IMG/VR virus record: IMGVR_UViG_3300038678_000209
Span: 1 to 53,649 of that record
Direction: 5' to 3' (one strand)
Length of the DNA stretch: 53,649 nt
DNA from: a virus
Lineage: Duplodnaviria > Caudoviricetes
Positions within the stretch are counted from its first letter, which is position 1, and the number at the start of each line of letters is the position of its first letter. The translations under genes were made by a program, and so were the position numbers. Of this stretch, positions 1 to 50,564 are shown one piece after another. Under the pieces are notes generated by a model. It saw only the letters and a list, made by a program, of their open reading frames with translations, was not told the DNA's origin and made no database searches.

Positions 1-127
1 TCCCGCCCGATAGCCGACGTGCGCAGGTTCCCACGACCTTTTCTCACCGCCAGTGGCTCGATGTTGCGGTAACGCATGAATCAACCGGTCCCCACCAATG
101 GCCGCTGTTATGGCAGTATCGGCCACA
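1..127. repeat. 127-bp exact terminal overlap (copy 1), marking a circular contig
   Basis: Bases 1-127 are identical to 53523-53649. 127 is a common assembler k-mer, and the 152-aa ORF start lies inside the overlap. Unit genome length is 53522 bp. Confidence 0.95.
82..102 (-). repeat. Dispersed 21-bp element GCCATTGGTGGGGACCGGTTG, copy 1 (also at 53604-53624 through the overlap)
   Basis: Plus strand CAACCGGTCCCCACCAATGGC, 21/21 match. Intergenic, between the stop at 108 and the ATG at 77 (=53599). Confidence 0.95.
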
Positions 128-3100
128 GGTCCGTATTGTCGTAGGTATCCACACCTGGTCCCTGTGTCCCGAATCGGTGAACTTTTTTGGCAAGCATCAT
201 TTTGAGCGCGCTCATTTTGCGCTGGAGTTGACGCTCGATTTCCGCACGCCGTTCGCTTTTGGCTTCGTTCGCGAGCACATCTAACGACGCGTAACAGGCG
301 ACTACGTGCTTGATGAGCCGCGAATACTGCGGCAGTACCTCGTATACCGTGGTGTCATCAGGGGCGGTGGTCCAATCGGGCCGCAGAGTCACCACCCGCG
401 TTGCGGTGTTGTACGCGGATGCGATGCGCTCTTGGCCGGCGCCTGTACCACTAAGCGTGCGGACCGTGTAGCCCGCGTAGGCGTGCGGGCGAATGTCGAG
501 TGTGCCGTCTGTTGGACTGGCCGGAAACGTAATCGAGTCGGCCGCTCCAGCAGCGGCAGTGGCGGTATGAATAGATACGTCACCTGCCGCGACATACAAC
601 ACCTCCAGTGTCTCAGCGGTGCGATTGAGGTGTTGAAACCGCAGTATGTTACCCTCGACCATAAATCCGTCGCCGCGAAATGTGTACGGGTTAGTGGGCC
701 AAACTTCGTGGGTTGGAATACCAGTATCCAAATCAATTTTTGCAATCCGCCAGATTTCAGCCATGTTGCATGGCAGCAAGTATTCTTGTGTGCCCTGTAC
801 AACTGGGACCTCGTACCGCACGAGGATTGGATGGTCCGTCTCGACGTTGATGGACGCGAGCACTTGATCGAACGCGCTGTGGATGTACTCGATCAAGTCG
901 GCGTCTGGGTACTTGGGTCCGGTGTCGGGTTCGTCAGTTGCCTTGCGGATGAGCGACACGCATTCGGACAAGAAGCCAACGCCGGATAGCGTACCGCTGG
1001 CAGAAACGACCAAGGGCGCGACCAAATCGGTGATTGCATCGCGGATAGCTTTAAGGGAATCGGTGCCGGTAGCGAACCCGGACCCCTGAATTGCTGTGGC
1101 TGCTTCGCCTAGAACCTCCAGCGAGTCAGTAGACGGCGTGTAAGTGCCAACGCCACTGGGAACCGTGGCTGCTTTGGACATCATGGCCCGAAGGTGACTA
1201 ATCAGGTTGTCGGGCGCAGAAGCTCCAAAGCCGGTAGACAACTTCAAAATCTCAACGAGGATAGCGGCACCCGGATCGGCCCAAACCTCAAACGTGTCTA
1301 CGCCTACTTCTGGGGTGAAGTCTAGAGCAGCATCCAAAGTGAAGGTGTTGGTGGACGCGGTGTAAACGCTTACGAGCCGGATATTAGGCTTGTTCCCAGA
1401 ATTCACGTCGCGGGCGAGGACCATCGCTCCGTTGTAGATGTCATCGGTGTCGTCTGCGCCCGCACCGGGAAGGTCGGCCGCCAACGCAATGAGTAGGCTG
1501 GCCGTTGAACCGGCTTGGATTGTAGTGTCGACAAGACGGGTAACCGGAACTGAATCGCTGCTCCATGCAGCGTCCCCACGATCCCGGATAGCTTCAAGGG
1601 AGTCAGTGGCAACCGCAAAGGTGCTGGTGTCGGAAGTCTTAGACATGATGTTGGAGAGTACTGTGCCATCGGCCACCTCAGGAGTCATATCGGGGTTGCT
1701 TGCGACCGGGGTCTTCATCAAGTGGTCAAGGTTGATGTCCAGCAGGGCCGTATCACATGCTGCATTGATCTGGTCTGGAGCAACCCGAGCAACCTCCGTA
1801 AGGGTAAGATTCGTAATCCCCGACGTTGAGATAATCCCTCGAATCGTCACCGTCCCACTGGTGCAGGTACCCTCGATGAGATTGGCCATTCCTTCGAAGT
1901 TCAGGGTATCGGTACCCGCATCCCCCATATTCTCAAGTTGGAGCCCACCGAAGTAATCGCGTACATGGACGTTTGAGCTGCCGAGGGCTCCCCCAAAGTC
2001 CAAAATCGGAGCCGTGGACCCAGTGACACCTGAGTGGCAAGAGTCCAACCAAATATCGCCTGCCTCAATGAGGGTCTGAGTTCCGGAAATCCGACAACTT
2101 TCCAGGTGGGTGTGGGCGATAAGGGAACAGGTCCCCATATCACAGTTTCGGAATGACTGGTTATCACCCGCGCCGGCCATCACTCCAGAAACATCGGCAC
2201 CCTCTACGTGGATACCAACCATTGTCTGACCCCCAAGGGCCAAGGTCCAGTTGTTACCAAAGAAAGAATAGGTAGATGCTGTAGCGGCAAGGGTAATGGA
2301 GGAACCGTTTATGACGTGGAAGTCCCGCATCCCCAAACTGGCTGCCAGAGTGAAGGCAGCCGTGATCGTGCTTACGGGATTGTCAGCGGTGCCGTCGACG
2401 AAGTCCTCCGTATTGGTATTGGACGCATTGGTATCTATGTAGATACGTCCATTTGAGTACCCGACTGAACGAGGCACAATAACGTAGTCGACTAGAATTT
2501 GATCGGTCTTGAGAGTAGTAGTGCCTACAAGGGCTACACTACCTGTCAGAAAGCGAATACGAACCAATCCCAGATTTGCCCCGGTCCCGGTATGAGCCGT
2601 TATTAGTTGATACTCAGCGTCCGCCAACGAAGTGTCGGAATCGAGGGTGCCAATTTGATCCCAGCCCGGAGTGCCCCAGTTGTATGCCCAAACCGTGAGG
2701 TTTTTTCCTGCCCCGGTCCCCTTGTCAAGTTGTATAGTGGCAGTAATCCCGCTGGCGAGTCCGTCCCCCCCGACAGAAAACTCGTAGTACACCTCAATCT
2801 TTTCGGTCCCATCCGTAACGGCTTCAATGTCATGTGTAACGCCGTCTTTGGCGAAGGTGCTATCCTCAGTATTGACTTCGTTCTCACCAGACGTTATGGT
2901 AAACCCGTTGGGGGATGCCTTGGGTGGAGTACTAACGGCAGACGAAGCCGGTACGAAGGGGTCTCCCAGTGTAATCTCCTCCACGGCGGGATGAAATCCA
3001 GTTTGAGTAACAACCAAAGTTACACCGGTGGCCCCCAAAGCAAAAGCTGCATCCGGCCAATCAACTCGGTATAAGCCGGGAGAAGACGTAGAATCCAGCT

Positions 3101-3302
3101 CAATCATCTTGTTGTCAGCGTGGGCAGAGTTTGTTGCGCCTAAAGCAGTGGCATCCACTTTGGCAGCAGGAGCCTCGCCGGTTCGTGTATACTGGAGATC
3201 AAAATTCGTTATGGTTGCGCCCGTCTCCGGCGCCCCAGTGGCAGAGTCCCCGACCATGACGGACCGAGTAACATTAGTCGTACCTTTGACAATGTTTGCC
3301 AT
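108..3302 (-). CDS. Virion protein: long fibre/beta-rich N-terminal region fused to a C-terminal head-tail adaptor-like domain
   Basis: 1064 aa, rich in G/T/A/D. The C-terminal ~280 aa (LIRKATDEP...YPDADLIEYIHSA...QGTQEYLLP) resemble podovirus adaptor proteins. Located between capsid and nozzle genes. Confidence 0.6.
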   Translation of the reverse strand: MANIVKGTTNVTRSVMVGDSATGAPETGATITNFDLQYTRTGEAPAAKVDATALGATNSAHADNKMIELDSTSSPGLYRVDWPDAAFALGATGVTLVVTQTGFHPAVEEITLGDPFVPASSAVSTPPKASPNGFTITSGENEVNTEDSTFAKDGVTHDIEAVTDGTEKIEVYYEFSVGGDGLASGITATIQLDKGTGAGKNLTVWAYNWGTPGWDQIGTLDSDTSLADAEYQLITAHTGTGANLGLVRIRFLTGSVALVGTTTLKTDQILVDYVIVPRSVGYSNGRIYIDTNASNTNTEDFVDGTADNPVSTITAAFTLAASLGMRDFHVINGSSITLAATASTYSFFGNNWTLALGGQTMVGIHVEGADVSGVMAGAGDNQSFRNCDMGTCSLIAHTHLESCRISGTQTLIEAGDIWLDSCHSGVTGSTAPILDFGGALGSSNVHVRDYFGGLQLENMGDAGTDTLNFEGMANLIEGTCTSGTVTIRGIISTSGITNLTLTEVARVAPDQINAACDTALLDINLDHLMKTPVASNPDMTPEVADGTVLSNIMSKTSDTSTFAVATDSLEAIRDRGDAAWSSDSVPVTRLVDTTIQAGSTASLLIALAADLPGAGADDTDDIYNGAMVLARDVNSGNKPNIRLVSVYTASTNTFTLDAALDFTPEVGVDTFEVWADPGAAILVEILKLSTGFGASAPDNLISHLRAMMSKAATVPSGVGTYTPSTDSLEVLGEAATAIQGSGFATGTDSLKAIRDAITDLVAPLVVSASGTLSGVGFLSECVSLIRKATDEPDTGPKYPDADLIEYIHSAFDQVLASINVETDHPILVRYEVPVVQGTQEYLLPCNMAEIWRIAKIDLDTGIPTHEVWPTNPYTFRGDGFMVEGNILRFQHLNRTAETLEVLYVAAGDVSIHTATAAAGAADSITFPASPTDGTLDIRPHAYAGYTVRTLSGTGAGQERIASAYNTATRVVTLRPDWTTAPDDTTVYEVLPQYSRLIKHVVACYASLDVLANEAKSERRAEIERQLQRKMSALKMMLAKKVHRFGTQGPGVDTYDNTDLWPILP

Positions 3303-8922: not shown

Positions 8923-9828
8923 TTATCCCCCCGGCAGTTGACTGCTCTCTCTTTCTATGAGCGCCTGATTGTACTTCATACGCTCCATCAAGTACTCATC
9001 GTGTGACTGCTCGTCCGCAAACGCAGGCACCCGCTCCGGCGCCTTCAACTCCTGATTCATTTGAAAGTCCGCCTGTGACCCCGGTCCCATTCCTGGTTGC
9101 GCGGGCCGCTCAAAAAACGGCGCTAGCCTCGCCTTCTCCGCGGCCACCGCTTGCTTAGCCGCTTGACCCCAGTTGTAGTCAAACCGATCACCGCGCTCGT
9201 CCACAAACCGTTGCAGCCGGTCCCGAATGATCGACTTCACCGAATCCTGCGCTTTCGGACTCGCCTGCTTCATATTATAGGACAACTCTTCGTCCAAGTC
9301 AAGCGCCTGCCCAATTGCCTGCTCAACCATGTGGCTATGGACAGCCCCAATCGCCTTTTGAGACCCCACATCCAACCGCGCGTACCCAATCGGCTCGTCA
9401 CCATCATCGGTACGCGCCCGCTTACCAGTCGACGTAGACGGCTCGTCAAGGTCCACGTCACCATCATCGTCGTCGTCTTTCAACTCCCCCTCAATTGCAG
9501 CGATAAGCGTGTCCAGCTCCCCCGCCGGCAAGTTCTTCACCTGCTCAAACAGCGCCGACGCGTCCACAGTAGCCTCCGCTGGTGCCGCCGCCACACTTGT
9601 CGATTGGACATTGGTGGGGACCGGTTGTGGCTCGCGATCCCCACCTGCAGCATCTGGCTGGGTGGACTTGTCGGGCGGTGCGGTGGCCTCCGTAGGAACG
9701 TCCACGTCAGCCGCGCGCCCAGTTGTCTGCGTGACCGCCGCGGGGGTCAAGTCGGGCGCGTTGCCCGGCGCTTGGTCCACGTTCGTGGTTCCGTCTGTTT
9801 GCGTTTGCGTATTGACTTCCGTGGGCAT
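8923..9828 (-). CDS. Putative scaffolding protein
   Basis: Acidic, low-complexity N-terminus and helical C-terminus, located between portal and capsid. Confidence 0.6.
   Translation of the reverse strand: MPTEVNTQTQTDGTTNVDQAPGNAPDLTPAAVTQTTGRAADVDVPTEATAPPDKSTQPDAAGGDREPQPVPTNVQSTSVAAAPAEATVDASALFEQVKNLPAGELDTLIAAIEGELKDDDDDGDVDLDEPSTSTGKRARTDDGDEPIGYARLDVGSQKAIGAVHSHMVEQAIGQALDLDEELSYNMKQASPKAQDSVKSIIRDRLQRFVDERGDRFDYNWGQAAKQAVAAEKARLAPFFERPAQPGMGPGSQADFQMNQELKAPERVPAFADEQSHDEYLMERMKYNQALIERESSQLPGG
9607..9627 (+). repeat. Dispersed 21-bp element, copy 2
   Basis: GACATTGGTGGGGACCGGTTG, 20/21. Inside the scaffold-like gene, encoding QPVPTN. Confidence 0.95.
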
Positions 9829-9831: not shown

Positions 9832-10524
9832 CTAATTCCCTCCCTCAATTTTGATCTTTTCCACATTCACAATCGGCTGGACATTTTGTGACAGCGCAAG
9901 AAGCGCTGTGTCCACCGGCACATTCAACTCGGTTGCAGCGAATTTTGCCGCGCTAATTATACCTGCACATGACGCCTTCATAGCACATGACATTCGGCTA
10001 TGCGGGTCCTCGTGTTCAATCCTTTGGAACCTCGCGCAACGGATGCTCACGCCGCACCCTTCCAAGTCATCTACTACCGTACCGCGCAGCTCCTCTTCCA
10101 TAGCTCGGCTTTGCTCAGCGATAGTCTGGAATTCGTTGTCAGATAGTATCCGCCGCACGCACGCTTCCACAACTGCCAGTATGTGGACGGTAGGTTCATC
10201 GGATGACGCAAGGAACACTCCCAAGTCTACAATGTCGTAGATGATAATGGCGTCTGCGCTTAGCGCTACGCCGTCCCACGTCAGTCCAGTAACCTGTTCA
10301 GTTGACGCGACATTCCTAAGCGCGTGTTCCTTGACAATTGTTTGGCAAGATGTACAAATCCTCCACCCAGTTTCTAGTCCCGGTCCAGGATTCCCGAGTG
10401 TATACCTAACGGCGACTTCTCCTGGTCTTACGACGGCCCACTTCAACGGGAATAGCCAAACCACTGGGGTAACCAGCGCGTTCATCACCAATTCTAGGCA
10501 CCTTGCGAGGAACTCAAGCATCAA
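9832..10524 (-). CDS. SPFH/Band 7 domain membrane protein
   Basis: Hydrophobic N-terminus, VVRPGEVAVRYTLG, LTWDGVALSADAIIIYDIVD, VEACVRRILS. Confidence 0.75.
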   Translation of the reverse strand: MMLEFLARCLELVMNALVTPVVWLFPLKWAVVRPGEVAVRYTLGNPGPGLETGWRICTSCQTIVKEHALRNVASTEQVTGLTWDGVALSADAIIIYDIVDLGVFLASSDEPTVHILAVVEACVRRILSDNEFQTIAEQSRAMEEELRGTVVDDLEGCGVSIRCARFQRIEHEDPHSRMSCAMKASCAGIISAAKFAATELNVPVDTALLALSQNVQPIVNVEKIKIEGGN

Positions 10525-12698
10525 ACGAACCCTTCCACGGGTACTTGCACACCGCCTGGCGGCTGGGTCGGAGGCGCTATGGCGCTGGCAGCAAGTGACT
10601 GGCCTTGTTGCTGTTGCTCAGCCGCAAGCCGCTGCTCAATCTCCGGCAACGCTTCCGCAGCCGCATCCTCTGGCAGCGGCAACCCCGCGGGATAGTCGCC
10701 CTTCATCCGTTCAAGGGCTTCTTTCCAAAGGACGAATTCCTGTTGCACTTCTTCGGTTGCCAGGCCGAACTCGATCTTGGACATGAACCGCTTCAACGCT
10801 CGCAGGTGTATGCTCGGGTCCTGCACGTGCTCGTCAAACTCAACCGGCCCCGGTTCCTTACCGTCGTTGAACAGCAAGATAATTTGCCAGATAGCCTTGC
10901 GCCATGTTTCGTACAAGTCTTTCGGTCCGCCCGGCACGTCCAGGTTTTCCTCGAACACTGCAAGCCAGTAGTTAATGTAGGACTCTTCCGGCGTCGCGCC
11001 AAGCAGCCCCGCCGCGTGATGCTCTGCCAATTCGCGCTTGCGAACGTCGGGGTCAGCGGGCACGCGGTCTTTCACATCCGTCTTGACTTCCCACGGTTGT
11101 GGTATCGGATTCTGCGCTAGTTCAAGCGATCCGGTTTCCGGGTTGAACACAACACCGGCCAGGTTCTCGTCGATGGTTGCTAGCTTAATCGTCTCGCCGC
11201 CCTGCAAGTTTTCGCGCGCCGACTGTAGAATGCGAGAGTAGATCGCAGCCATGCTGTCCGCCAAGTTCGCAGACGGCAGTCCCAATCCGATATTGCCCGT
11301 GTTGAACAGAAACCCGTGTCCTGCGGCGCCAATGTCCCGCCCGGCGGCTTGCCCCTCGTAGAACGGCCCCTGCCCAGCAAGGCTGTCGGATACGTCTTTC
11401 AAAAACACGCCAAAGTTTACGGGCAACAGCCCGATGTTCTTTGGTTGTATACTGATCGGCTGTGCGTTCGACGCTAGCGGATCAATTGTGTACTTATCCA
11501 TGCGCGGGCGGGGGCCGGGCTGGTTGTGCTTCTTCACATCGATGTTCATGCCGCTACTGACATACGTAGTGCCGAACATGTCCATTTCGCGGATGTTCCG
11601 CGCGACAGACGCGATGACCTTCTCGAACTGGTCATTGGCCGGAATCAGTGGTGCCACAAACCCACGTGAGAAGGCTGCTCCAGTATCCGTGTATCGCACT
11701 GCCTGTAACGGGCACACGATTCTGCGGCCTACAGCTTCGTAGTCGTCTTGGTAAATGATCTTGCGGCCGATCTTCAAGATGTACCGCGCCGTATAAGTCG
11801 CGTCATCCATGTACGGGTAGACTTCTTCCATCGGCACGTAGTAGCGGCCTGCCACATCAATGTCACGGTGCTCGTCCGCCTTGCCACTGCCAAGCGGCAC
11901 TCCCACAAATGCGCGCCCGCCGCCAATCTTTGGATCAGCCGGCGTCAGTACGTTGCCGTCTTGCAAGTACCGACCGTGTGTACCTCCCGTTGTTTCAGTA
12001 AGTAGCGAGTGGCCCGGCGGTTGGTTTCCCCACCCCACACGCACTCCAAGCAGATCAGATTCAACGTCGTACAGCGTATCCAAGTTGATGTCCCACCGGG
12101 TCTGTACGTAACTGCGGACCCACTCGTAGGGCATCCACCGCTTCCGCGCAATGCCCTGTATCGACTCGCAGCCCTCCGCAAACGCTGGCAAGAATCGAAG
12201 TTGCCTCGGCGGCACAACTTCGATGTGGTCTGGGTGTTGGGGGTCCGGCATTTCGTGGTGCGCAATGCCAACGATCCCGTACTTTACGAACGGCACTATG
12301 ATCGCGGTCTTAAGCCGATCAAGGTTAAGACCCGCCACACGTGCGTTCAATACCGCATTCGCGATCGCAGCGTTGCGCATGTCACCAAGCGATTCACCGC
12401 GCCGTCCTACTTTCGGCGATATGTCTGCGCGTAGCCACCGCCCCACTTCTACGAGGTAGCGGCGGACGATGTCTTCATAACGAAAGAGCACGTCCCCGCG
12501 CAAATGCTCAAAGCCGACCGCTACACGGCCAGCATACCGGTCGAGTGTCGTGAATTTTCTAGCGCCGCGGAGGTAGCCGTCGATGACTCTCCAGCCGGAC
12601 AAGTTGAGTCCCATTTCAGACTCGGCGGCAGTGAGTTCCATATCTAGGGATTCGGCCAGATGATCTTCGTCAGACGGTAGGTGATACCTTGCCATCAA
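10521..12698 (-). CDS. Portal protein
   Basis: 725 aa, downstream of the terminase. Helical, with a Q/P-rich C-terminus as in podovirus portals. Confidence 0.7.
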   Translation of the reverse strand: MMARYHLPSDEDHLAESLDMELTAAESEMGLNLSGWRVIDGYLRGARKFTTLDRYAGRVAVGFEHLRGDVLFRYEDIVRRYLVEVGRWLRADISPKVGRRGESLGDMRNAAIANAVLNARVAGLNLDRLKTAIIVPFVKYGIVGIAHHEMPDPQHPDHIEVVPPRQLRFLPAFAEGCESIQGIARKRWMPYEWVRSYVQTRWDINLDTLYDVESDLLGVRVGWGNQPPGHSLLTETTGGTHGRYLQDGNVLTPADPKIGGGRAFVGVPLGSGKADEHRDIDVAGRYYVPMEEVYPYMDDATYTARYILKIGRKIIYQDDYEAVGRRIVCPLQAVRYTDTGAAFSRGFVAPLIPANDQFEKVIASVARNIREMDMFGTTYVSSGMNIDVKKHNQPGPRPRMDKYTIDPLASNAQPISIQPKNIGLLPVNFGVFLKDVSDSLAGQGPFYEGQAAGRDIGAAGHGFLFNTGNIGLGLPSANLADSMAAIYSRILQSARENLQGGETIKLATIDENLAGVVFNPETGSLELAQNPIPQPWEVKTDVKDRVPADPDVRKRELAEHHAAGLLGATPEESYINYWLAVFEENLDVPGGPKDLYETWRKAIWQIILLFNDGKEPGPVEFDEHVQDPSIHLRALKRFMSKIEFGLATEEVQQEFVLWKEALERMKGDYPAGLPLPEDAAAEALPEIEQRLAAEQQQQGQSLAASAIAPPTQPPGGVQVPVEGFV

Positions 12699-13054
12699 AT
12701 GTTCTCGTAAGAAGACTCGCCAGGCTCAGTCCAAGTCGTATCTGGTTGCTCCTCGGACGCACGCAACTCCCGCTGCCGCGCATACGTCCCAAACGCCTGG
12801 GCCAAATCGGAATTGCCCATTTGTACGAGCAAGAGTTCTTGAAGCCGATCAACGACAGGTAGCCAGTCCTGTACGGCGCTGCCAGCATGAGGTTGGCCAT
12901 TGGTGGGGACCGGTTGATTTACACGCACTTGCAACTCAGACACCTCGCGGTGCAGGCGTCCAACATCCGCGTGTAAGGATTGAAGAACCTGCGTGAGCTG
13001 GTCTACTGCCACGCGCTTCTGCTTGTTGGGTTTGTCACGATTCCAGAATGCCAT
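12695..13054 (-). CDS. Hypothetical coiled-coil protein
   Basis: GGGGAGG RBS, ATGA overlap with the portal gene, contains element copy 3. Confidence 0.65.
   Translation of the reverse strand: MAFWNRDKPNKQKRVAVDQLTQVLQSLHADVGRLHREVSELQVRVNQPVPTNGQPHAGSAVQDWLPVVDRLQELLLVQMGNSDLAQAFGTYARQRELRASEEQPDTTWTEPGESSYENI
12896..12916 (+). repeat. Dispersed 21-bp element, copy 3
   Basis: 21/21. Inside the 119-aa gene upstream of the portal, encoding QPVPTNG. Confidence 0.95.
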
Positions 13055-13151: not shown

Positions 13152-15062
13152 TCAGGCATAACCGATTATATCCCAGTCCACGCCGGTCGTATCGTCGCGC
13201 TGGGCCTGCTCCTCCTGCGCGCGGTAGTGGGCTTCCGCGACTTCGTCGGTCAGGCGCCCGGTTGCGATCGCGTGCTCAAAGTTGTCGAAGCCAAGATCGT
13301 CGTGGAGCTTGCCGTCTTTGAGCTGCTGGACCGCGTCAAGCGGGTCGGACGCGACTGAGATCGCAATGGGTGCCGCGCCCTTAGCGATGCCCTGGGTCAT
13401 GGCTACCGTGTCCAGAATGTCGTCGTGCTCCAGCAGGCCCATGTCGCTCGTGAACAGCTTGGTTTGATCCCACAGCGCCTTGTACGCAACTTCGTCCATG
13501 CGGTCTACAGGGTACTTGATGCGGAACTGCTCAAAGCGCCATGCGATACCTTTGATTTTCTCTGCTTTGGAAAACGTAGTGGGGAACTTGATGGGGATAA
13601 TTGCGGGGACCATTGAAGCGGCGCCGTCGGACACGCGCGCTTGTAGCTGCGGGAGCATGTCTTGGTAGAACCGCTCGTAGGTTTCCAGTTGTAGACCATA
13701 CGCCTCGATGCCAATGATATGAACTTGCCACTTAATCGCCATGTCAGTAAGGATTTTGACGAGTGTAGAGCGCTCTACTTTGCCCATCCAAGCGTCCAGG
13801 GAGAACAGCGTGTTGGGGTGGGCCTCAGTAGATTCCAAGCCAAATGCCTGGCACGCGGAGAAATCGGACATGTCGCTGATCGTGGGTGCGTAGTCGGCGG
13901 TGAGTATACGGTACATGCCCTGAACTGCGGGGCCAAAGGGGCGCACGAGCTTGCGCGGCACAGGGACAATGCGCAAGATTTCGGGGTCGTCCGCGTCTCG
14001 CACTTGGTCTAAGCGTGCGACTTGGTGAGTGACCAGCTTGGTTGCGGCTGACTGCAACGGGGACGTTGTATAGACTTGGTCGCGATCCTCCAGGTGGTAG
14101 GTCGTGAGTTCTGGGTGAATCTTGAGAAGCGCCTCTTCGTCTGTGGCCGGCGCGTTGAGACACTGCGCAGAAAATGCGGCCAGGCCAAGCTGCTTCTTTT
14201 CGTTCTCGATCCACTCTTCGTTCATAAACACGTCCGTAGACATATCGTGAACGGTCATCAGCGTGCGGTGGAAGAAGTCCGTAATCTTTGAGTCCTTGGA
14301 CTTGTACAGATTGTAGATGTACATCGCGCGCGAGTAGAGCGTGCCAACAATGCGCATGGGGATGGTTTTGCCCGGCGAACGGGCCATAGGGAGAAGGCCG
14401 TTGAAGAAGAAATCGTGGAAGCCGTGGCGCACGTCACCGGGATTGAGCACCTGCTCTTTGGACTTTTCCACGTCATCCACAACGATCAAGCCGGAGGGGC
14501 GTGTTCCTATGCTGGCGCCCATGAAGGGCTTGGCTTCGATCTTGCAGCGGCTCGTAGTCTCCAAGACGGACCCGCGGTTCCAAGTGCCGCTACCGCGCTT
14601 GGGTTTTTGTTTGCCGAAGTCGTCAATGATCCGAGAGTTGCTTTCCAATTGCGTGGCTAGACGGCCCAAGCGGGACGTGCAAAACTCGCGGGTGGCAAAG
14701 AACGCGGTGCATTCCCAGAACCGGCGCGTGACGAGGTTCCGCAGAATGTCTTCAAGCAGTTTGGTAGTTTTGCAGCCGCCACGCGGTGCGATGTGGATTA
14801 AACGTTTGTGCGTGTACCAGTCGCGTACCCACTCGGCGTGGGCCGGTGGAGACTCCACAAACGTGTCGGAGTACCAACCAGATTCCCAAGGGCGTAAATA
14901 CGTGTCGCAGAAGAATCGATCCGCAGCTACTTCAAGATCGGGTGGGCCATTGAGTGACGCGGCATTGACACGCGCCAGGCGTTTTCCGTCAAACGTTAGG
15001 TCTTCGTAGTCAGGAGGAAGCGGCCAGCGCTCGTTGCCTTCCTTGGGAAAAACAACAGGCAT
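13152..15062 (-). CDS. terL: Terminase large subunit
   Basis: Walker A IAPRGGCKTT, Walker B LIVVDDVE, RNase H-like nuclease residues (ADYA, SDFSA, HDDILD). Confidence 0.88.
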   Translation of the reverse strand: MPVVFPKEGNERWPLPPDYEDLTFDGKRLARVNAASLNGPPDLEVAADRFFCDTYLRPWESGWYSDTFVESPPAHAEWVRDWYTHKRLIHIAPRGGCKTTKLLEDILRNLVTRRFWECTAFFATREFCTSRLGRLATQLESNSRIIDDFGKQKPKRGSGTWNRGSVLETTSRCKIEAKPFMGASIGTRPSGLIVVDDVEKSKEQVLNPGDVRHGFHDFFFNGLLPMARSPGKTIPMRIVGTLYSRAMYIYNLYKSKDSKITDFFHRTLMTVHDMSTDVFMNEEWIENEKKQLGLAAFSAQCLNAPATDEEALLKIHPELTTYHLEDRDQVYTTSPLQSAATKLVTHQVARLDQVRDADDPEILRIVPVPRKLVRPFGPAVQGMYRILTADYAPTISDMSDFSACQAFGLESTEAHPNTLFSLDAWMGKVERSTLVKILTDMAIKWQVHIIGIEAYGLQLETYERFYQDMLPQLQARVSDGAASMVPAIIPIKFPTTFSKAEKIKGIAWRFEQFRIKYPVDRMDEVAYKALWDQTKLFTSDMGLLEHDDILDTVAMTQGIAKGAAPIAISVASDPLDAVQQLKDGKLHDDLGFDNFEHAIATGRLTDEVAEAHYRAQEEQAQRDDTTGVDWDIIGYA

Positions 15063-16497: not shown

Positions 16498-16803
16498 TCA
16501 CTTTGTCTTCTCGGGAATCCGTTCAAGCTCTTCAGAACCGCCGCGGAGGCGCTCGGCGAAGCTCTTTAGGGTGCGCAAGCCCCGTAGCAAGTCGCTACCT
16601 GCTTTTCCACGTGGCTTGGGAACCGGACCGAGCAGCTTGTCTGCACGCGCAACAACGCGTTGATACGCAGCGCGTTCTCGTGGGGCGAGTGATCGGGCCT
16701 TGCGGCCAACGGTTACGCGGTTTTTATCAAGTGCAGCTTGCGCAGCTCGCCGTTGAGCCTCAACGTCTTTTCGGGTTCCCGCAGTGGATTTATTCTTTGC
16801 CAT
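16498..16803 (-). CDS. Small highly basic protein
   Basis: 101 aa, K/R/A-rich. Confidence 0.55.
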   Translation of the reverse strand: MAKNKSTAGTRKDVEAQRRAAQAALDKNRVTVGRKARSLAPRERAAYQRVVARADKLLGPVPKPRGKAGSDLLRGLRTLKSFAERLRGGSEELERIPEKTK

Positions 16804-19388: not shown

Positions 19389-20186
19389 TCACTCCACAGG
19401 GGTGCTGCAAAGAGACTCACTGGATGTATGCCCCCAGAGAGGGTCACCAGGCGTAATGCTTGCCATCCGAGCGCAGGCACCACCGGCATACAGCTTGGAC
19501 AGCTCGATGCCCAGCCAGCGGCGGTTCAGCTTCTTGGCGACGGCGGGGGTGGTGCCGCTGCCTACGAAGGGGTCAAGCACGAGATCGCCCTCGTTGGAAC
19601 AGGCTCGAATAATGCGGCCGAGGACCTGCTCAGGCATCTGGCAACCGTGAAAGCCTTGGCGTTCGTTGTGGGTGCCGCAGACTCGCGGGAACTCCCACGT
19701 GTCGTCGGGGATGCGGCCACGAGGATCAGCTCGTTTGTCGCCCGCGAGCTGGCGGGCAGACGGCACGCGGATTGCGTCCGCGTTGAACGTGAAGTGCTTG
19801 GGGTCCTTGACAAAGTAGAGCAAGTGCGTGTGGCTGCGCGTAAACTTGCGCTTGCAATTGACGCCAAACGTGTAGTGCCAAATGACCCAATTTCGGCAAT
19901 GCAGGCCAAGATTACTCGTGCAGATGACCTTCAACTCAGCCGCGTAGTCATCGCCGATGGCAAGCCAAAAGGTGCCGTTGGGCTTGAGCATACGTACAAC
20001 TGCGCTGATCCACTCACGTGACCAACGGAGGTAGTCGATGTGAGGTTGCTTGTCGTTGTAGTCGTCGTACTCGTAGCCGATGTTGAACGGCGGGTCGGCG
20101 AAGACGAGGTCGACTGAGCCCGCGTCGAGCTTGGCGAGTTCCTGAATGCAATCGCCGTGGATGATTTGATCTAAGTCAGTTGTCAT
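19389..20186 (-). CDS. Beta-class N4/N6 DNA methyltransferase (orphan)
   Basis: Catalytic DPPF precedes the SAM-binding [10 protein letters not shown]. The ATG at 20186 has a GGAGGA RBS. Confidence 0.93.
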
Positions 20187-20211
20187 GTTAGTTCCTCCTG
20201 GTTGCTGGATA

Positions 20212-20240
20212 GTAATACCGTCAAATCGTGGGCAAGTCAA
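20212..20240 (-). promoter_or_regulatory. Possible promoter for the methyltransferase
   Basis: TTGACT-N17-TATTAC, with an imperfect -10 box. Confidence 0.4.
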
Positions 20241-20343
20241 GCACGAAGTTGGGGGTGGAGACGAGGTGGATCGCGTACACAAACGCCCCGACTAGGAGCG
20301 TCGCGATTGCGGCCACGTACAGAATGGTCAGAGCAGAGCGCAT
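20221..20343 (-). CDS. 40-aa single-TM membrane peptide (below the ORF-track cutoff)
   Basis: [28 protein letters not shown]..., GGGAGGA RBS, own upstream promoter. Confidence 0.5.
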
Positions 20344-32483: not shown

Positions 32484-32710
32484 TGCAGAAGAAACGCCAA
32501 CGCAAGATGTCCGGTAGGCGCCGCGCCGTTGTTGCCACGCGCAAGGCCGAAGTTGCCGAGCTGAAAGACGCGCGGTTCGCCGAAATCGCCGACATGATTG
32601 CTGGGCGCCTTGAACCCTGCATCGAGTTGCTAGTCAAAGCTGAAGTCGCCAAGGCGATAGCTGGTCTATACAAGTGCCAGCTCCCGTTGGAGGAGGCTTC
32701 TGGTGAGTAG
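32483..32710 (+). CDS. Small hypothetical protein
   Basis: AAGGA RBS, TAATG coupling. Confidence 0.55.
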   Translation: MQKKRQRKMSGRRRAVVATRKAEVAELKDARFAEIADMIAGRLEPCIELLVKAEVAKAIAGLYKCQLPLEEASGE

Positions 32711-34226: not shown

Positions 34227-35284
34227 TCTCTGACCTTTCCAAGATGACGGAAGTGCGGGAGGTTCCGCTGCGGTCCACGTTCATGTCGGACTCTGAGCGC
34301 TGCCCCCGCTACGCCTTGCTGCGCCACCGCGCCGGGCTGGTCCCGCGTGGTCACACGTCCGACGCGCGCTTCCGCGGGGACATCATGCACAAGATCGTTG
34401 CCGAGGTCCTCCGTGGCAAGACGCAGGAGCAAGCAGAGAGTGCTGCCCATACTCGCCTGACCGAAACATCACAGAGCATCGTCGATTCGCTCACAGACTC
34501 CGGCTACACGCCCGCGGGCAAGACCCCCGAGGAAGCGATCAAAAGCCTAGAGACCGAGACCAAGGTCGCCATTGCCATGTCCCGCGCCTACTGTAAGTTC
34601 TTCGGCATCCGCGCTGGCTCAGCCAACGTTCTTGTAGATCACGACGGCAAAATCGTCCACAACTCGCTACCTGTTTATGTAACTTGTATAGAACGCTTCG
34701 TCGGACATCACTTGTCTGAATGTAGTGAAGCGGGGGCTCTAGACGCGGTCTTGATAGACGAACCCAAGCGGAACCTGTATGTACTCGACCATAAAACCAG
34801 CGGACGAGACGGGGTACAGTATATACGGACCCTCCCGCTTGCTGCCCAGACGTTGTTATATCCGCGCCTAGCTGCCACCTTGTGCGCAGAGACAGACTTA
34901 CAGATTGCCGGAATCATCTACAACGTAATCCGCACGCCGACCATCCGTTGCTGCAAAACGGACGACAACGACCTTGACAAGTACGCTGCGCGCGTAGAGC
35001 AATGGTACGAAGACAACCTTGACACTACTATGGCACAAACAATCATTTGTCCCTCGCCGGAGTTGAAGATACTCTCGGTACAGCGGCACGAACGCGCTGC
35101 GGGGTACTGCACAGCGCCCCCACTGCTGGAGAACTTCCCGGCTTGTGGAGGAGCTGCTTGCCATGCCTACAACAGCTTATGTGCCTACATAGGGTTATGT
35201 ACTTTGGACACTAGTCTCTGGCCAGAACAATTGGCGCGCTTCGATAAGGACTTCCGCGATGACGAGCCTACAGTGGGCAACTAG
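34223..35284 (+). CDS. PD-(D/E)XK (RecB/Cas4-like) exonuclease
   Basis: N-terminal CPRY, RG..MH, GALDAV, VLDHKT, QTLLY, C-terminal Cys cluster. Confidence 0.82.
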   Translation: MISDLSKMTEVREVPLRSTFMSDSERCPRYALLRHRAGLVPRGHTSDARFRGDIMHKIVAEVLRGKTQEQAESAAHTRLTETSQSIVDSLTDSGYTPAGKTPEEAIKSLETETKVAIAMSRAYCKFFGIRAGSANVLVDHDGKIVHNSLPVYVTCIERFVGHHLSECSEAGALDAVLIDEPKRNLYVLDHKTSGRDGVQYIRTLPLAAQTLLYPRLAATLCAETDLQIAGIIYNVIRTPTIRCCKTDDNDLDKYAARVEQWYEDNLDTTMAQTIICPSPELKILSVQRHERAAGYCTAPPLLENFPACGGAACHAYNSLCAYIGLCTLDTSLWPEQLARFDKDFRDDEPTVGN

Positions 35285-35798
35285 TAAGCCTATACCAACT
35301 TTGCCGGGATACCGTGCTACAAGTGACGGCACCGTGTGGTCTAGTCGATGTTGCGGCGTTGGACCTGGGAATTGGCGTGCAGCCTTGTGCCCTGAAGAGT
35401 GGAAACAAATCTGCGGCAGCATCAACAAGGGATACCTACGCGCTGAGTTTCAATTGAACGGTCAGCCAACGCGCCGTCATCTGCACCAAGTGATCTGCGA
35501 AGCATTCCACGGACTGCGACCTGGTCTGAATCCTTTTTGGCAGGCAGCGCATAAAAACGGCGACCATTTCGATAACCGCCCCGTAAATCTGTATTGGGCC
35601 ACTGCCAAAGAGAACATGGCAGATCAGTACCGTCATGGCACCCGTGTTTCCAAGTTGACTGAAGAACATGTGCGTGAAATCTTACAATCGACGGATGGAC
35701 CTACCAAATTGGCTGTGCGGTTTGGCGTATCCGTTCCTACCGTTTGCAACATCCGAGCAGGACGCAAATGGAAACGTTTGAAAGGAATCCAACAATGA
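35259..35798 (+). CDS. NUMOD4-like/HNH homing endonuclease
   Basis: PGYRATSDGTVWS, HLHQVICEAFHG, HKNGD..DNR..NLYWAT.KEN, C-terminal HTH. Confidence 0.88.
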   Translation: MTSLQWATSKPIPTLPGYRATSDGTVWSSRCCGVGPGNWRAALCPEEWKQICGSINKGYLRAEFQLNGQPTRRHLHQVICEAFHGLRPGLNPFWQAAHKNGDHFDNRPVNLYWATAKENMADQYRHGTRVSKLTEEHVREILQSTDGPTKLAVRFGVSVPTVCNIRAGRKWKRLKGIQQ

Positions 35799-36799: not shown

Positions 36800-37297
36800 A
36801 TGTCGGAAGAGCAAGGATTCATGGACGTTTTGGCTGGGTTCATTCCCGTAGCCAGAGACACCGAAGTTGGGGACGGTGGTTACTTCATCCCCAAGGGCGA
36901 GAAGCATCTGTCTCTCAACACCGCCGAGTTCGAGCCGGGCACGAACGACTACGGCCCGTTCGTCAAGGCCACTCTCACATGGGGCATCTGCGACCCCGGT
37001 GAGGACCAGGACCGCGAGTTCTCGACGGTCTACTTCGTGAACACAATGAAGCCGGATAAAGGTACCGGCGTTGCTAAGCTGTCCTTTGGCGGTCAAGACC
37101 TGCTGCGCCTCGCCGCTGTATTTGCAGGTGAGCCGATTGCAGACAACAACCCTGTCAACGCCGCAGCGGTCATCCAGGGCTCCATTGGCGCCGTTATCAA
37201 AGCCAAGTGCTCCGCGCGCAAGAACCCAAAGACGGGCGACGAGTATCCACGCGTCCGCCCGCTCTCCCTGGAAGCTATCCCGGCAACCACTCAGTAA
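36800..37297 (+). CDS. Putative single-stranded DNA-binding protein (OB-fold)
   Basis: Position after the Sak4-like ATPase. Pattern IPKGE...YPRV. GAGGAG RBS. Confidence 0.55.
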   Translation: MSEEQGFMDVLAGFIPVARDTEVGDGGYFIPKGEKHLSLNTAEFEPGTNDYGPFVKATLTWGICDPGEDQDREFSTVYFVNTMKPDKGTGVAKLSFGGQDLLRLAAVFAGEPIADNNPVNAAAVIQGSIGAVIKAKCSARKNPKTGDEYPRVRPLSLEAIPATTQ

Positions 37298-37520
37298 GGC
37301 GGGAAGTACCGGGCGTGGCAGCTCGGAGAGACGAGCCGTTCGGCGCCAGCTAACGGTGGGGGCTGACAGGCGAGTTCAAGGCTCGCCCGCCGAAGTGGAG
37401 ACTGAATGGGGCGACACCTGCCCGAATGACAAATACGCATGGGCCATTGGTGGGGACCGGTTGGGGTCATGCGTTCCAGTCGTCCAAAGTGGCGTGACCG
37501 GGGAGAGAGTTCCCCCTTTC
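37298..37520 (+). ncRNA. Candidate structured ncRNA containing an anticodon-less tRNA-like domain
   Basis: Nearly fully base-pairable 220-nt intergenic region with a T-arm GGCGAG-TTCAAGG-CTCGCC (see findings). Confidence 0.55.
37443..37463 (+). repeat. Dispersed 21-bp element, copy 6
   Basis: 21/21. Lies in the structured intergenic region after the SSB-like gene. Confidence 0.95.
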
Positions 37521-37539
37521 TACTAAAGGAAAACTACCA

Positions 37540-37758
37540 GTGAAGTTCACAGTGAATAATTCTCCGCAGACCGACGTAACCTTCCGCGCGGAAATTGATG
37601 AAGACGGCGATCTAATGCTGTACGCCAACGACTGCAAGCTACTCTTCATTACACACAAGGGAGGCCACTTAGCTCGGATGAGCGTGCCGAACGACCGGCG
37701 CGCGGCGTTGGCAGGGCTCTCATTCGATGAAGAAGACCACATTGAACTATCTGTATGA
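37540..37758 (+). CDS. Small hypothetical protein
   Basis: AAGGA RBS, GTG start. Confidence 0.65.
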   Translation: MKFTVNNSPQTDVTFRAEIDEDGDLMLYANDCKLLFITHKGGHLARMSVPNDRRAALAGLSFDEEDHIELSV

Positions 37759-37919
37759 GCAGAACGCACAAAGGACAAAAAGGCGCCGGGTACGAATACT
37801 GGCAAACGCGAATCTCCAAGTGGTTGCGCTCGCCGGGTTCGTGGACCAAGCGCACGACTAACCGCATCCTGCGCCGCACGCGCAAACAGAAAGACAAGAG
37901 TCAATGCCACCAACCGTAG
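37755..37919 (+). CDS. 54-aa basic protein (below the ORF-track cutoff)
   Basis: ATGA overlap. MSRTHKGQKGAGYEYW...WTKRTTNRILRR. Confidence 0.6.
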   Translation: MSRTHKGQKGAGYEYWQTRISKWLRSPGSWTKRTTNRILRRTRKQKDKSQCHQP

Positions 37920-38401
37920 TCCTTCATGGGTTCACCGTGGACCCCCGTCGCGATTGTGTAACGTGCCGGGAATGCGGCGCTTCTTTCGCTGCGATTGGGT
38001 TGCGCACTCAGGCGTTGCGTGTAGCGCGGTTGATGGGGCGCCCTTCGATCAACGTGCATCACTGCGCCGAACCACCGGCACCAGCAGTCCACATCGCTTG
38101 CGTGGCGCAACTCGTGTCTCTGGATCAACCTGCGCACGAGCCCAAGCATCTGCCTGGCGAGCCGGGGTTTGAACACGAGGTTGAGTGCGAACCGGCTGTG
38201 TGCCGATGGTGCAAGGACAAGCGCGAGATAACCATCAACTTCAAGACCAGGCCGTGCGATTGCGTGAAGCAGGAGAACACCGGTTGCGTGGGACAGGAGG
38301 ACATCGGCAGCGGGTGGGAAGTGCTCCTCGACGCCGCGCAGACGCAGGAGAAAATCGGTAGGGGGTGGAAAGTCAAGCATGAGTACCGCGGGCTTTGGTA
38401 A
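37904..38401 (+). CDS. Cys-rich hypothetical protein
   Basis: CREC and CRWC...PCDC motifs. Confidence 0.5.
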   Translation: MPPTVVLHGFTVDPRRDCVTCRECGASFAAIGLRTQALRVARLMGRPSINVHHCAEPPAPAVHIACVAQLVSLDQPAHEPKHLPGEPGFEHEVECEPAVCRWCKDKREITINFKTRPCDCVKQENTGCVGQEDIGSGWEVLLDAAQTQEKIGRGWKVKHEYRGLW

Positions 38402-38404
38402 CGA

Positions 38405-38425
38405 CAACCGGTCCCCACCAATGGC
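38405..38425 (-). repeat. Dispersed 21-bp element, copy 7
   Basis: 21/21 as reverse complement. Intergenic, 3 nt after the stop at 38401. Confidence 0.95.
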
Positions 38426-38452: not shown

Positions 38453-38674
38453 ATGAAGATTGTGGACACAGTTGAAGCTCCTAAAATGTGTACGGTGTGT
38501 GATATTGAGGACGGGGGAACGTTCGAGTGGGATGGAAGCTACTACATCCGTCCGGGGTACGGCGTGCGACGTACAGGAGACATCGGCGGGGTGGGTCTAG
38601 CGACTGGCGACTTTGTTTCTAATTCTGTTACGTTGATGGTGCGCCGTGTGACAATGGAAGCGCGCGTGTTGTGA
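38453..38674 (+). CDS. Small beta-barrel-like hypothetical protein
   Basis: GGAG RBS. Weak resemblance to 26650-26886. Confidence 0.65.
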   Translation: MKIVDTVEAPKMCTVCDIEDGGTFEWDGSYYIRPGYGVRRTGDIGGVGLATGDFVSNSVTLMVRRVTMEARVL

Positions 38675-49096: not shown

Positions 49097-49097
49097 C

Positions 49098-50564
49098 TTA
49101 CTCAAACCCTCCCCCAAGAAGCATACTGCCAAAGCCTAGTATGGCACCCGCAGGACCGGGAATCATTTGCATAAACAACTGAGACATCGTAGCCGCCTTC
49201 GCCCACTCTTCCCCCGCAGCCAACGCGTCTAGCATGTTATTGTAGCCGCCCGCCTGGAGCTTCGTCGCAAAGTCGGTCCCCAAGATGTTCTGCCCAATCG
49301 CAAAGTGATTCGTCATAAAGTCGTAGGGCAACTGGCTTACGTAGTTTTCCGAATCCAACAGCGCCAAGCTCGTACCGTCCTTAGCATCGCGATAATTCGC
49401 CGTCAGGTTGTCATAGTTGAACCGAATCGAATCCGCGTTGTTCCGTGCATTGATCCGCAGCTCATCAAATCCAGCCGAAATATCCGCGGCCTTCGTGTAC
49501 GCACCCGCGACCGCTTGTATCTCCGCACCGCCCAATACCGCAAGCGACTGGTTCCTTGCAGTAGACGCGGCAGCAACAGACTGCATTGTACTTACCATCG
49601 CACCCGTTTGCAATGCTGTAAAGTCTTTGATGTTCGCGCCGATGGTAGTCGCGATCTGCATCGACCCGGTTACACGCAGTTGTGCAATCAGCGCCGACTT
49701 GCGGCCCGGCGGAATGTTCGGGTCTGCATTGATTTTCGCTTCTGCATTGCGCATGGCTTGCTGCTGCGCGCTCACCGCAGCCTGCGCCGCCGCATTCTTT
49801 CCCTCCAGCGCTATGCCAACCGCTTCGCGCCCCAACCCCTCGATACGGTCAATGTCAACGTCAGTTGTCTCTTTGTACTTGTCCGCAATCCCACTTAGCG
49901 CATCCTGCACCTGCCCCGGCAACTGGGACGCATCCTGCTTGGCTTGGTCGGCAATATCGTCTGCCGCCTGTACCGTCGCATCCAGCCGCTCCCGCCCCTC
50001 AGCCAGTTGCGTCTCCGTATCTGCCTCACGCCCTGAAATGGCAGTTTCAGCTTTTTGCAGCGACTCCTCCGCAGCCGCCGTCTCGGTTTCAGCCAGGCCC
50101 TCCAGCGACTTCAAAGACTTCGCTCCAAACTCTCCAATTGCGGGCGCCTCAATTTGCCCAGTCTCAGGGTCCACGCTTCCCGTGAACCCGCTCACGTCTT
50201 GCGCAGGATACGTATGCAACCGCCCACTTTCATCCCGGTACACCTCCTCTCCCCCGCCGCTGCTAACGAGTGTCAAACCCGCTCGATCTCGCCCGGTACC
50301 CCCAGGCTTCCCCTGGTCGGCGCCCGTATCCGACCCAGTAGCTCCCTCCCTTAGCTTCGCCCCAGCACGAGCCTTGCCAATGGTGGGGACCGGTTGTGTC
50401 CCCGCGATTGTGCTGGTACCCGTACCCGTACCCGCACCCGCACCCGACTGCTCGCCAGCCCGCGCCTTGCGCCGCTTGGCGGTCCTGCTCACAGCGCTCC
50501 CGAGGCGCCTCAGAGACGTGGTCCGCGTTTGAGTCTCGTTTGGTGATGTAGGTGCCGTTGCCAT
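49098..50564 (-). CDS. Putative ejection/pilot protein
   Basis: A/G/Q-rich helical body and hydrophobic C-terminus GPAGAILGFGSMLLGG. Likely ATG at 50564. Confidence 0.55.
   Translation of the reverse strand: MATAPTSPNETQTRTTSLRRLGSAVSRTAKRRKARAGEQSGAGAGTGTGTSTIAGTQPVPTIGKARAGAKLREGATGSDTGADQGKPGGTGRDRAGLTLVSSGGGEEVYRDESGRLHTYPAQDVSGFTGSVDPETGQIEAPAIGEFGAKSLKSLEGLAETETAAAEESLQKAETAISGREADTETQLAEGRERLDATVQAADDIADQAKQDASQLPGQVQDALSGIADKYKETTDVDIDRIEGLGREAVGIALEGKNAAAQAAVSAQQQAMRNAEAKINADPNIPPGRKSALIAQLRVTGSMQIATTIGANIKDFTALQTGAMVSTMQSVAAASTARNQSLAVLGGAEIQAVAGAYTKAADISAGFDELRINARNNADSIRFNYDNLTANYRDAKDGTSLALLDSENYVSQLPYDFMTNHFAIGQNILGTDFATKLQAGGYNNMLDALAAGEEWAKAATMSQLFMQMIPGPAGAILGFGSMLLGGGFE
50376..50396 (+). 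repeat. Dispersed 21-bp element, copy 8
   Basis: GCCAATGGTGGGGACCGGTTG, 20/21. Inside an ejection-like gene, encoding QPVPTIG. Confidence 0.93.

Follow-up and report, generated by a model that had tools for sequence, protein, structure and literature searches.

A selected 21-nucleotide element in eight dispersed copies of an uncultured tailed-phage genome is a candidate regulatory tag

The DNA analysed here, called the window throughout, is the whole of the 53,649-nucleotide IMG/VR record IMGVR_UViG_3300038678_000209, a tailed-phage genome (Duplodnaviria; Caudoviricetes), and the element under study is an asymmetric 21-mer, GCCATTGGTGGGGACCGGTTG, dispersed over it in eight unique copies. Comparison with relatives indicates that the element is real, selected and part of a family-wide pattern, and it is most likely regulatory.

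Genome layout and copies of the element

A long leftward block of genes runs from 20282 to 108 and continues from 53599 to 41709. It carries the large terminase gene (13152–15062; PHROG 38), and we take portal, scaffold-like, capsid and tail genes to belong to it from their position and conservation. The rightward block (21410–41664) encodes a family-A DNA polymerase, a DHH phosphoesterase, a metallophosphoesterase, an exonuclease and a Sak4-like annealing protein, and beside the polymerase gene sits a short unit that runs leftward from 26572 to 25500. Most open reading frames (ORFs) are without a family match; the window holds no tRNA genes, and no lysogeny genes were found in this genome. 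No near-identical record was present among 50,697 deposited phage genomes, and among public runs the sequence occurs only in metagenomes of marine sediment, available as contigs.

A pattern search for the 21-mer at up to three mismatches gave nine matches in the window, whereas 100 shuffles that preserved its dinucleotides gave no match at all. It reproduced all eight copies, with their mismatches, that a previous sequence-only reading of this DNA had reported, together with a ninth match at 53604–53624(−) that is a duplicate of the copy at 82–102(−) and not independent. Positions 1–127 are identical to 53523–53649, an exact terminal overlap that includes copy 1, and the IMG/VR record is flagged as having direct terminal repeats and as 100% complete; the overlap therefore points to an assembly closed into a circle of 53,522 bp that contains eight unique copies. 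Because the contig of a relative, G003, breaks elsewhere on the same gene map, the 127-bp overlap would reflect assembly closure of a circular or concatemeric molecule and no real terminus. The copies, and a degenerate partial copy that the sequence-only reading had also pointed out, are as follows.

Copy 1, 82–102, − strand: exact, sense; between the stop of ORF 108–3302(−) and the ATG of ORF 53141–53599(−), 4 nucleotides (nt) before that ATG.
Copy 2, 9607–9627, + strand: one mismatch; antisense within ORF 8923–9828(−), reading QPVPTNV, 201 nt past the start codon.
Copy 3 (locus T), 12896–12916, + strand: exact; antisense within the small ORF 12695–13054(−), reading QPVPTNG.
Copy 4, 24217–24237, + strand: two mismatches; sense, codons 8–14 of a small zinc-ribbon-like ORF, 24196–24390(+).
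Copy 5 (locus L), 26487–26507, − strand: exact, sense; forms the tip of a long hairpin predicted in a leftward transcript's 5′ leader.
Copy 6 (locus S), 37443–37463, + strand: exact, sense; forms the tip of a long hairpin that is predicted downstream of ORF 36800–37297(+).
Copy 7, 38405–38425, − strand: exact; intergenic, antisense to rightward transcription, 27 nt upstream of the ATG of ORF 38453–38674(+).
Copy 8, 50376–50396, + strand: one mismatch; antisense within ORF 49098–50579(−), reading QPVPTIG, about 190 nt downstream of promoter P3.
Partial copy, 21044–21054, − strand: core GGTGGGGACCG only, in the divergent early region.

Five copies are thus exact, two carry one mismatch and one carries two, with five on the + strand and three on the − strand. 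By our own gene calls four lie in ORFs (9607, 12896 and 50376 in clear ORFs, 24217 in a small one) and four are non-coding (82, 26487, 37443 and 38405); relative to local transcription, four are sense (82, 24217, 26487 and 37443) and four antisense (9607, 12896, 38405 and 50376). Both even splits agree with the sequence-only reading. The ORF around copy 2 is called scaffold-like on gene order alone, and the ORF of locus T sits between the large terminase gene and a putative portal gene, itself called from position and conservation with no family match. The QPVPT-type copies are sited in poorly conserved, low-complexity N-terminal parts of their proteins, and in one relative (L033) the 24217-type copy lies outside the zinc-ribbon-like ORF. 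Some subsets of copies have additional flank similarity (families D3 and D4). A second box resembling CNYGCGWT, spotted post hoc, follows all eight copies 1–12 nt downstream in the orientation of the motif, on the same side of every copy regardless of the direction of transcription.

The element is conserved while its flanks diverge

The relative G001, a 55.6-kb IMG/VR contig, is collinear with the window; the identity of aligned segments is 70–95%, and 15.9% of the 41,883 aligned bases are mismatched. It carries eight copies at orthologous places with the same strand pattern, five exact, two with one mismatch and one with three, and the two genomes have none of these mismatches in common. Window and G001 differ at 7/168 motif positions, whereas 388/1,486 aligned positions differ in the +/-100 flanks and 114 further positions there are unalignable (Fisher p = 2.5e-17). 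The flanks of copies 9607, 24217, 38405 and 50376 are strongly diverged or contain indels around an unchanged 21-mer. Further relatives were available as six metagenome fragments (66–94% identity) that leave the 50376 site uncovered; in these the motif was present at 7/7 covered site types and 8/9 copies were exact. All 18 core positions are kept in 7/8 paralogues and in the orthologues of three lineages, and the edges of the element are sharp. Relatives at about 66–87% nucleotide identity thus retain the motif at orthologous sites; the sequence-only reading had suggested a test for non-orthologous ones.

These comparisons support selection on the motif as nucleic acid, as the earlier reading had proposed, and speak for a cis-acting element that is neither an artefact, a host repeat nor a coding motif; the constraint is assigned to the nucleic acid because synonymous positions are fixed and four copies are non-coding. 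For the same two reasons a coding motif was rejected, even though the three QPVPT- copies share one frame (a 1-in-9 chance). Compensatory upkeep of the internal hairpin of the motif was not seen among the variants, which break pairs at positions 5, 7 and 9.

Copies lie near four conserved promoters

Four promoters with the extended −10 element CCTATAAT are present at 9274, 13099, 26544 and 50582, all leftward, and at the same orthologous places in G001 and the more distant G003.

Promoter P1, 13099–13127, − strand: TGGAAA-17-TATAAT with CCTATAAT.
Promoter P2, 9274–9302, − strand: TTGACT-17-TATAAT with CCTATAAT, inside ORF 8923–9828(−).
Promoter P3, 50582–50610, − strand: TTGAAA-17-TATAAT with CCTATAAT, upstream of ORF 49098–50579(−).
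Locus L promoter, 26572–26544, − strand: TTGACC-17-(C)CTATAAT, 11/12 consensus matches.

Copies are located 51, 197, 200 and 339 bp from these promoters, copy 3 lying about 190 nt downstream of P1; random placement of eight sites reached such proximity in 5.5e-5 of trials, with a distance threshold picked after seeing the data. No copy in the window overlaps a −35 or −10 hexamer of the CCTATAAT promoters. Written as (G)GCCTATAAT, the extended −10 promoters stand at 9274, 13099, 26544 and 50582 (−) in the window and at 9051, 12818, 25584 and 45449 (+) in G003, and these sigma-70-type promoters are retained across relatives only 35–66% identical in neighbouring proteins. From this retention at orthologous places, near-consensus promoters of host type appear to drive the structural genes.

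Two sense copies occupy non-coding segments with predicted structure

Loci L and S each combine a sense copy with further predicted structure.

Locus L, 26450–26572, − strand: promoter, leader hairpin with copy 5, then CUUUU; upstream of the 99-amino-acid (aa) membrane-type ORF 26058–26357(−).
Locus S, 37400–37520, + strand: 5′ hairpin GGCGACACCTGCC, long hairpin with copy 6, and a terminator hairpin (37500–37515) followed by a T run.

The hairpin of locus L is long and imperfect, and copy 26487 forms its tip, CCAUUGGU-GGGG-ACCGGUUG; the predicted fold in the window has −53.8 kcal/mol (z = −2.7). All four sequences available for this locus accommodate the structure: 97% of cells are paired, and four pairs have changed on both sides. 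At locus S a non-coding block is conserved in G001, L032, L042 and G003. Its 5′ hairpin GGCGACACCTGCC is unique in each genome and has a G-C to C-G swap in G003, and its terminator hairpin covaries (GGGGA/UCCCC vs GCUG/CAGC, then a U run). Both folds are consistent among the sequences modelled and their context is suggestive; the covariation signal is weak. At copy 82 a long outer hairpin is predicted in the window and, by inspection, is unkept in G001 and L031. Rfam covariance models gave no match at E ≤ 1 over the whole window on both strands.

A tRNA-like 3′ fragment (37360–37392, +) lies just upstream of locus S. The corresponding fragment of G001 (about 32567–32592; L016 about 12567–12592) reads as a T-arm GGTTCGAGTCC plus acceptor strand. 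ARAGORN called no tRNA at the fragment by locus S, nor at a tRNA-like sequence that follows locus S at the contig end in G005.

Distant relatives carry other words at the same loci

Homologues of the large terminase TerL form a large uncultured family (92 proteins at E ≤ 1e-10, many on 50–57 kb contigs). In five complete IMG/VR genomes with TerL 61–28% identical, the 21-mer of the window was not found at up to three mismatches. Three of them carry a different word at the same loci.

G003 (TerL 61%): word GGATTGGTGGGGACCTCCTCCGCGCG, 26 nt, which has ATTGGTGGGGACC in common with the window; exact twice, sense at S (terminator follows) and antisense at T.
G004 (TerL 49%): word TGTAGAGGAGTAGAGTC, 17 nt; sense at L (4 nt after TATAAT), sense at S, antisense at T.
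G005 (TerL 45%): word AGCGTGGGAACGAGTT, 16 nt; sense at L (5 nt after CCTATAAT), antisense to late genes at T.

In G003, locus T is again the small ORF between terminase and portal genes. A further 14-nt stretch of its S locus (CTCCGCGCGGCGTA), which lacks the conserved core, reappears in antisense in the P1 transcript (positions +4 to +17); the lengths of the two regions give, by our own calculation, a chance expectation of about 0.003 for such matches. The G003 word was found only through direct comparison of orthologous loci, de novo repeat clustering (14/16 matches) yielding noise only in G003 and G006. In G004 the S copy is followed by a GC hairpin and a T run, three copies begin 4 nt after −10-like hexamers, and an extra facing pair of the 17-mer occupies a divergent intergenic region. 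In G005 two tandem core copies lie at S, the whole genome has 20 occurrences of the 10-nt core, and several antisense copies adjoin ribosome-binding sites. Loci and relative polarity (S and L sense, T antisense) are kept while the word is replaced between lineages.

Words of higher copy number were also recorded. In G005 (L075–L077), GGGAACGAGT occurs 20 times on both strands (about 0.1 by our own chance estimate), and in G007 (L081–L083), CGTCACTGGGG occurs 54 times on both strands at up to one mismatch (about 1 expected). The 22-kb contig L061 holds TTGTGGGTGAGAT 15 times on both strands at up to two mismatches, frequently immediately ahead of a ribosome-binding site; one inverted pair of copies forms a hairpin. 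No such word was found in G006.

A possible antisense-RNA circuit

Copies lie near all four CCTATAAT promoters, two sense copies occupy predicted hairpins bounded by a promoter or a terminator, and antisense copies fall in the 5′ parts of mRNAs; together these point to gene regulation. We tentatively favour, at a little less than even confidence, the reading that the 21-mer serves the phage as a tag for base pairing in a control circuit of antisense RNAs. The sense copies would be presented at the tips of structured non-coding RNA segments, one of them the 5′ leader hairpin made from a consensus promoter beside the DNA polymerase gene (locus L, 26487), the other the terminator-bounded element after ORF 36800–37297 (locus S, 37443). 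These RNAs would pair over 19–21 nt with reverse-complement copies in other transcripts, namely the ORF at locus T (12896), the scaffold-like ORF (9607), the 493-aa ORF behind P3 (50376) and the 5′ untranslated region of ORF 38453. Pairing could alter translation, stability (for example by duplex cleavage) or transcript elongation of the targets and so set the timing of late genes. We infer the production of the RNAs, their pairing and its effect from the copies themselves, their conservation, polarity and context, and the predicted folds.

The reverse-complement match to L and S amounts to 21/21 at 12896 and 38405 and 20/21 at 9607 and 50376, and the antisense copies are located in 5′ untranslated regions or within about 70 codons of the start. 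Moreover, 18 core positions with sharp edges hold more information than a protein site usually needs, which fits the requirements of a duplex. Other points in favour of RNA pairing are the promoter and terminator surroundings of the predicted L and S hairpins, the retention of polarity across lineages whose words of 16–26 nt differ, the core-less 14-mer at the start of the G003 P1 transcript, and the failure of the Pfam search of 40 ORFs to reveal a DNA-binding regulator.

Several observations weigh against this antisense-RNA reading. It leaves the sense copies at 82 and 24217 unexplained; copy variants are not of the wobble type and break the internal hairpin; and at the level of 11-mers the L and S RNAs show no complementarity to other window transcripts beyond the motif itself. 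The covariation is weak at L, where 21/500 column shuffles do as well, and 22/500 shuffles attain the observed score at S; these tests used four or five sequences, unconstrained alignments can reach such scores, and the structures were derived from the same sequences. No RNA runs were among the public runs that hold the sequence. The words of G005, G007 and L061 (15–54 copies, both polarities, sense copies within ORFs too) are explained more simply by a reader acting on DNA, and the kept polarity could be plain descent, with motif and reader drifting together.

Extended to the family, the antisense-RNA reading suggests a broader picture, which we offer with reserve as possible and on balance rather doubtful: this uncultured phage family of about 50–57 kb genomes might use swappable, lineage-specific address tags of 16–26 nt, by which early or middle RNAs would gate head-gene expression through RNA–RNA pairing. 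The word would be displayed at fixed loci, the leader by the polymerase gene and the terminator-bounded element after the gene following Sak4, and its exact complement would lie in late mRNAs; the small ORF separating the terminase and putative portal genes would be among these sites in every lineage. Such a system would be an RNA counterpart of operator–repressor specificity, re-codable wholesale and expanded to eight sites (here) or more.

Alternative readings of the copies

The strongest alternative, which we hold to be somewhat improbable though nearly as likely as RNA pairing, treats the copies as double-stranded DNA operator or roadblock sites for a sequence-specific phage or host protein that would control the four CCTATAAT promoters and other units, with a specificity co-evolved in each lineage. 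Dispersed asymmetric sites of 13–17 bp for monomeric repressors are established in phages (PMC9283540, PMC8546580). The presence of a copy within 51–339 bp of each CCTATAAT promoter (at the random-placement frequency and post hoc threshold given above), the 4-nt spacing of three G004 copies from −10-like hexamers, the CNYGCGWT box on the same side of all eight copies and the sense copies that RNA pairing does not account for would all suit such sites, as would the orientation-blind words of G005 (20 copies), G007 (54) and L061 (15). An invariance over 18–26 nt is, however, unusual for protein sites, the second box stands at a variable distance (1–12 nt), the S-matching 14-mer at P1 of G003 lacks the core, the flanking stems at L and S would be useless to a DNA site, and the mixed orientation to transcription differs from that of stoperators. 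In line with the contrast that the sequence-only reading drew with the stoperators of mycobacteriophage L5, the orientation differs and no repressor-like protein was found: searches of 40 ORFs (Pfam) and 30 ORFs (PHROGs) gave no helix-turn-helix (HTH), repressor, ParB, recombinase, integrase or RNA polymerase family. The absence of a DNA-binding family from the 40 ORFs is weak evidence because many ORFs match no family. ORFs present in all motif-bearing lineages and missing from G003 are 9832–10524, 16498–16803, 24196–24390, 26058–26357, 29504–30409 and the methyltransferase; none of these resembles a DNA-binding regulator.

We consider it very improbable that the copies are sites for a site-specific nicking enzyme that would leave localized single-strand interruptions in virion DNA, as in T5, phiKMV-like phages and tf. 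Site number and conserved positions are comparable, the known nick sites having a 9–19-bp consensus, a handful to 14 sites and similar places in relatives (PMC3517423). Those described are all on one strand, whereas copies here lie on both, five + and three −; the sole HNH nuclease gene (35259–35798) is missing from G001, which keeps 8/8 copies; and nicking would leave the promoter, hairpin and terminator contexts unexplained.

Crossover sites, used by an invertase or by Sak4/exonuclease annealing for inversion, module exchange, packaging or genome folding, are a reading to which we attach very little credence. Inverted and direct pairs of copies do exist, and the gene content of the segments 24217–26487 and 37443–38405 varies from one relative to another. 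Genes nevertheless follow the same order and orientation in the window, G001, G003 and G004, and the variable segments have their breakpoints away from the copies. No inversion joint was present in contigs of two public DNA runs (patchy cover), no recombinase or integrase family was found, and contig ends differ between the window and G003, the 127-bp overlap being no real terminus. The one record that joins 38319 to 26487 comes from a relative at low depth, in which the motif copy was aligned with a paralogous one. A role in organising, segregating, packaging or recombining the genome, which the sequence-only reading had inferred, and the inversions ending at copies that it had suggested looking for thus find no counterpart in the fixed synteny of four genomes, the contigs of the two runs or the gene content, in which no recombinase or ParB-like gene was detected. 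Its arithmetic on opposite-facing pairs bracketing blocks of 9.5–12 kb is correct, and no evidence gives those blocks meaning.

Equally hard to credit is a small palindromic mobile or host-derived repeat, itself non-regulatory, such as a repetitive extragenic palindrome (REP), a miniature inverted-repeat transposable element (MITE), an uptake-signal or a Chi-like sequence. The motif is an imperfect hairpin, subsets of copies have extra flank similarity, and three in-ORF copies share one frame within disordered protein regions, where some in-frame palindromic elements are known to sit in one frame. Conserved cores with decayed flanks are the opposite of a decaying mobile element, and a third lineage at 66–80% identity has 7/7 covered site types in place. 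In a scan of 185,579 bacterial and archaeal species, each represented by a single genome, the 18-nt core gave only nine single hits and no repeat, and the five hit genomes examined have one or two core copies each in unrelated coding contexts. A host repeat, which the sequence-only reading had suggested looking for in candidate host genomes, is ruled out by these counts within the species sampled; the true host may be unsampled. The probability not taken up by the readings above is left to something not considered.

Two further candidates were tried and rejected. A phage-polymerase promoter found no RNA polymerase family in the six largest unassigned ORFs scanned (798–1064 aa), and the variable distance of 1–12 nt to the second box and the mixed polarity also disfavour it. 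The spacings do not fit sigma-54 or another host-factor consensus on inspection by eye.

The core was also seen in unrelated sequences. None of 24 loci without nucleotide similarity to the window (22/28 scan hits and the two halves of contig G002) has a protein in common with it. Among loci L022, L039, L043, L045, L046 and L048, several Chitinophagaceae-type contigs have the 18-nt core embedded in conserved surroundings, CGGAACATATC..GCATTGGTGGGGACCGGTTGG, which evidently belong to a conserved gene that has no relation to the phage; in two other genomes the core encodes (Q/H)WWGPV in membrane-type ORFs.

Variable and accessory genes

The slot between copies 37443 and 38405 contains two small ORFs in the window and is shorter in G001. 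In L032 it holds a DNA methyltransferase (2106–2825) that is 51% identical to the product of window 19389–20282. To judge from these comparisons, the slot between the facing copies is a variable cargo site. In the leftward unit of locus L, the 184-aa ORF 25500–26054(−) is 31% identical to its counterpart in G001, 55% in G003 and 80% in L033, and has apparently been exchanged between lineages. Between the putative portal and the scaffold-like gene, the 230-aa ORF 9832–10524(−) is 91% identical in G001 and absent from G003–G007; by eye it looks SPFH/band-7-like, with no family match.

An HNH_3 endonuclease ORF (35259–35798, +; PF13392, E = 5e-9) lies between the exonuclease and Sak4 genes. It is missing in G001, where the alignment skips from 35265 to 35796, and looks like a free-standing homing endonuclease insertion. 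A 72-aa ORF (20666–20884, −) scores above the curated cut-off for the Acb2/Tad1 hairpin domain (PF24729, E = 2.1e-17) and has no homologue in G001 or G003–G007; it is probably a signal sponge directed against Thoeris or cyclic oligonucleotide-based anti-phage signalling (CBASS).

Discussion

Dispersed, near-invariant short repeats are known in several phage groups, mostly without proven function. For the antisense-RNA reading, the nearest precedent by analogy would be the CI RNA of P4, a small RNA processed from an untranslated leader that pairs with complementary phage-transcript sequences, seqA and seqC, and stops expression (PMC4825925). As in P4, the leader hairpin (L) and 3′ element (S) predicted here carry a tag complementary to other phage mRNAs. 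The P4 targets closely flank CI on both sides within its own transcript, which they cause to terminate prematurely, and their role is in lysogenic immunity; here, in contrast, eight copies extend over 53 kb with a 19–21 nt match, and the targets are mostly late structural genes. The placement of P4-type targets is accordingly not reproduced, the targets lying 1–25 kb away in other transcription units. The c4 RNA of P1 and P7 is similar to P4 CI.

Among DNA-level systems, the stoperators of L5 (Cluster A) are 13-mers in more than 20 copies that occupy short intergenic spaces and are strictly oriented with transcription, reversal abolishing function, and L5 encodes a two-domain HTH repressor (PMC9283540). 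Like them, the present element has many short asymmetric copies at promoters and within transcription units; unlike them, it is a 21-mer with eight copies, four in ORFs, a polarity split of 4/4 and no repressor found. Stoperator motif variants reportedly differ between related phages. The C1 repressor of P1 has 22 genome-dispersed operators with an asymmetric 17-bp consensus (PMC8546580), similar in copy number, asymmetry and dispersion. Those operators are degenerate around the consensus and located at promoters, whereas the copies here are near-identical over 18–21 nt, half of them are in ORFs and no C1-like protein was detected. Cluster O mycobacteriophages carry a 17-bp repeat, TGTTCGGNNNCCGAACA, with 34 copies in Corndog, nearly invariant, between and inside genes and in all cluster members, of unknown function (PMC4351075). 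That repeat is described as a true palindrome in more than 30 copies, whereas this motif is asymmetric, has eight copies and has polarity-specific contexts.

The comparative picture is sharp: the same three loci carry a word that is common within a lineage, in at least four lineages, and the word differs between lineages while its polarity is kept. What appears new relative to known dispersed control sites and phage antisense RNAs is, on sequence comparison, that the word seems re-codable while staying at fixed loci. Should the reader be RNA, the element would belong to an antisense circuit, re-codable and with several targets, that sets the timing of late genes in a lytic-looking phage. Should the reader be a protein, the element would define the regulon and the binding site of a regulator in a large sediment-phage clade in which most scanned ORFs are family-less. 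On either reading, the tags may help to annotate promoters, small RNAs and operon boundaries in a dark-matter phage family.

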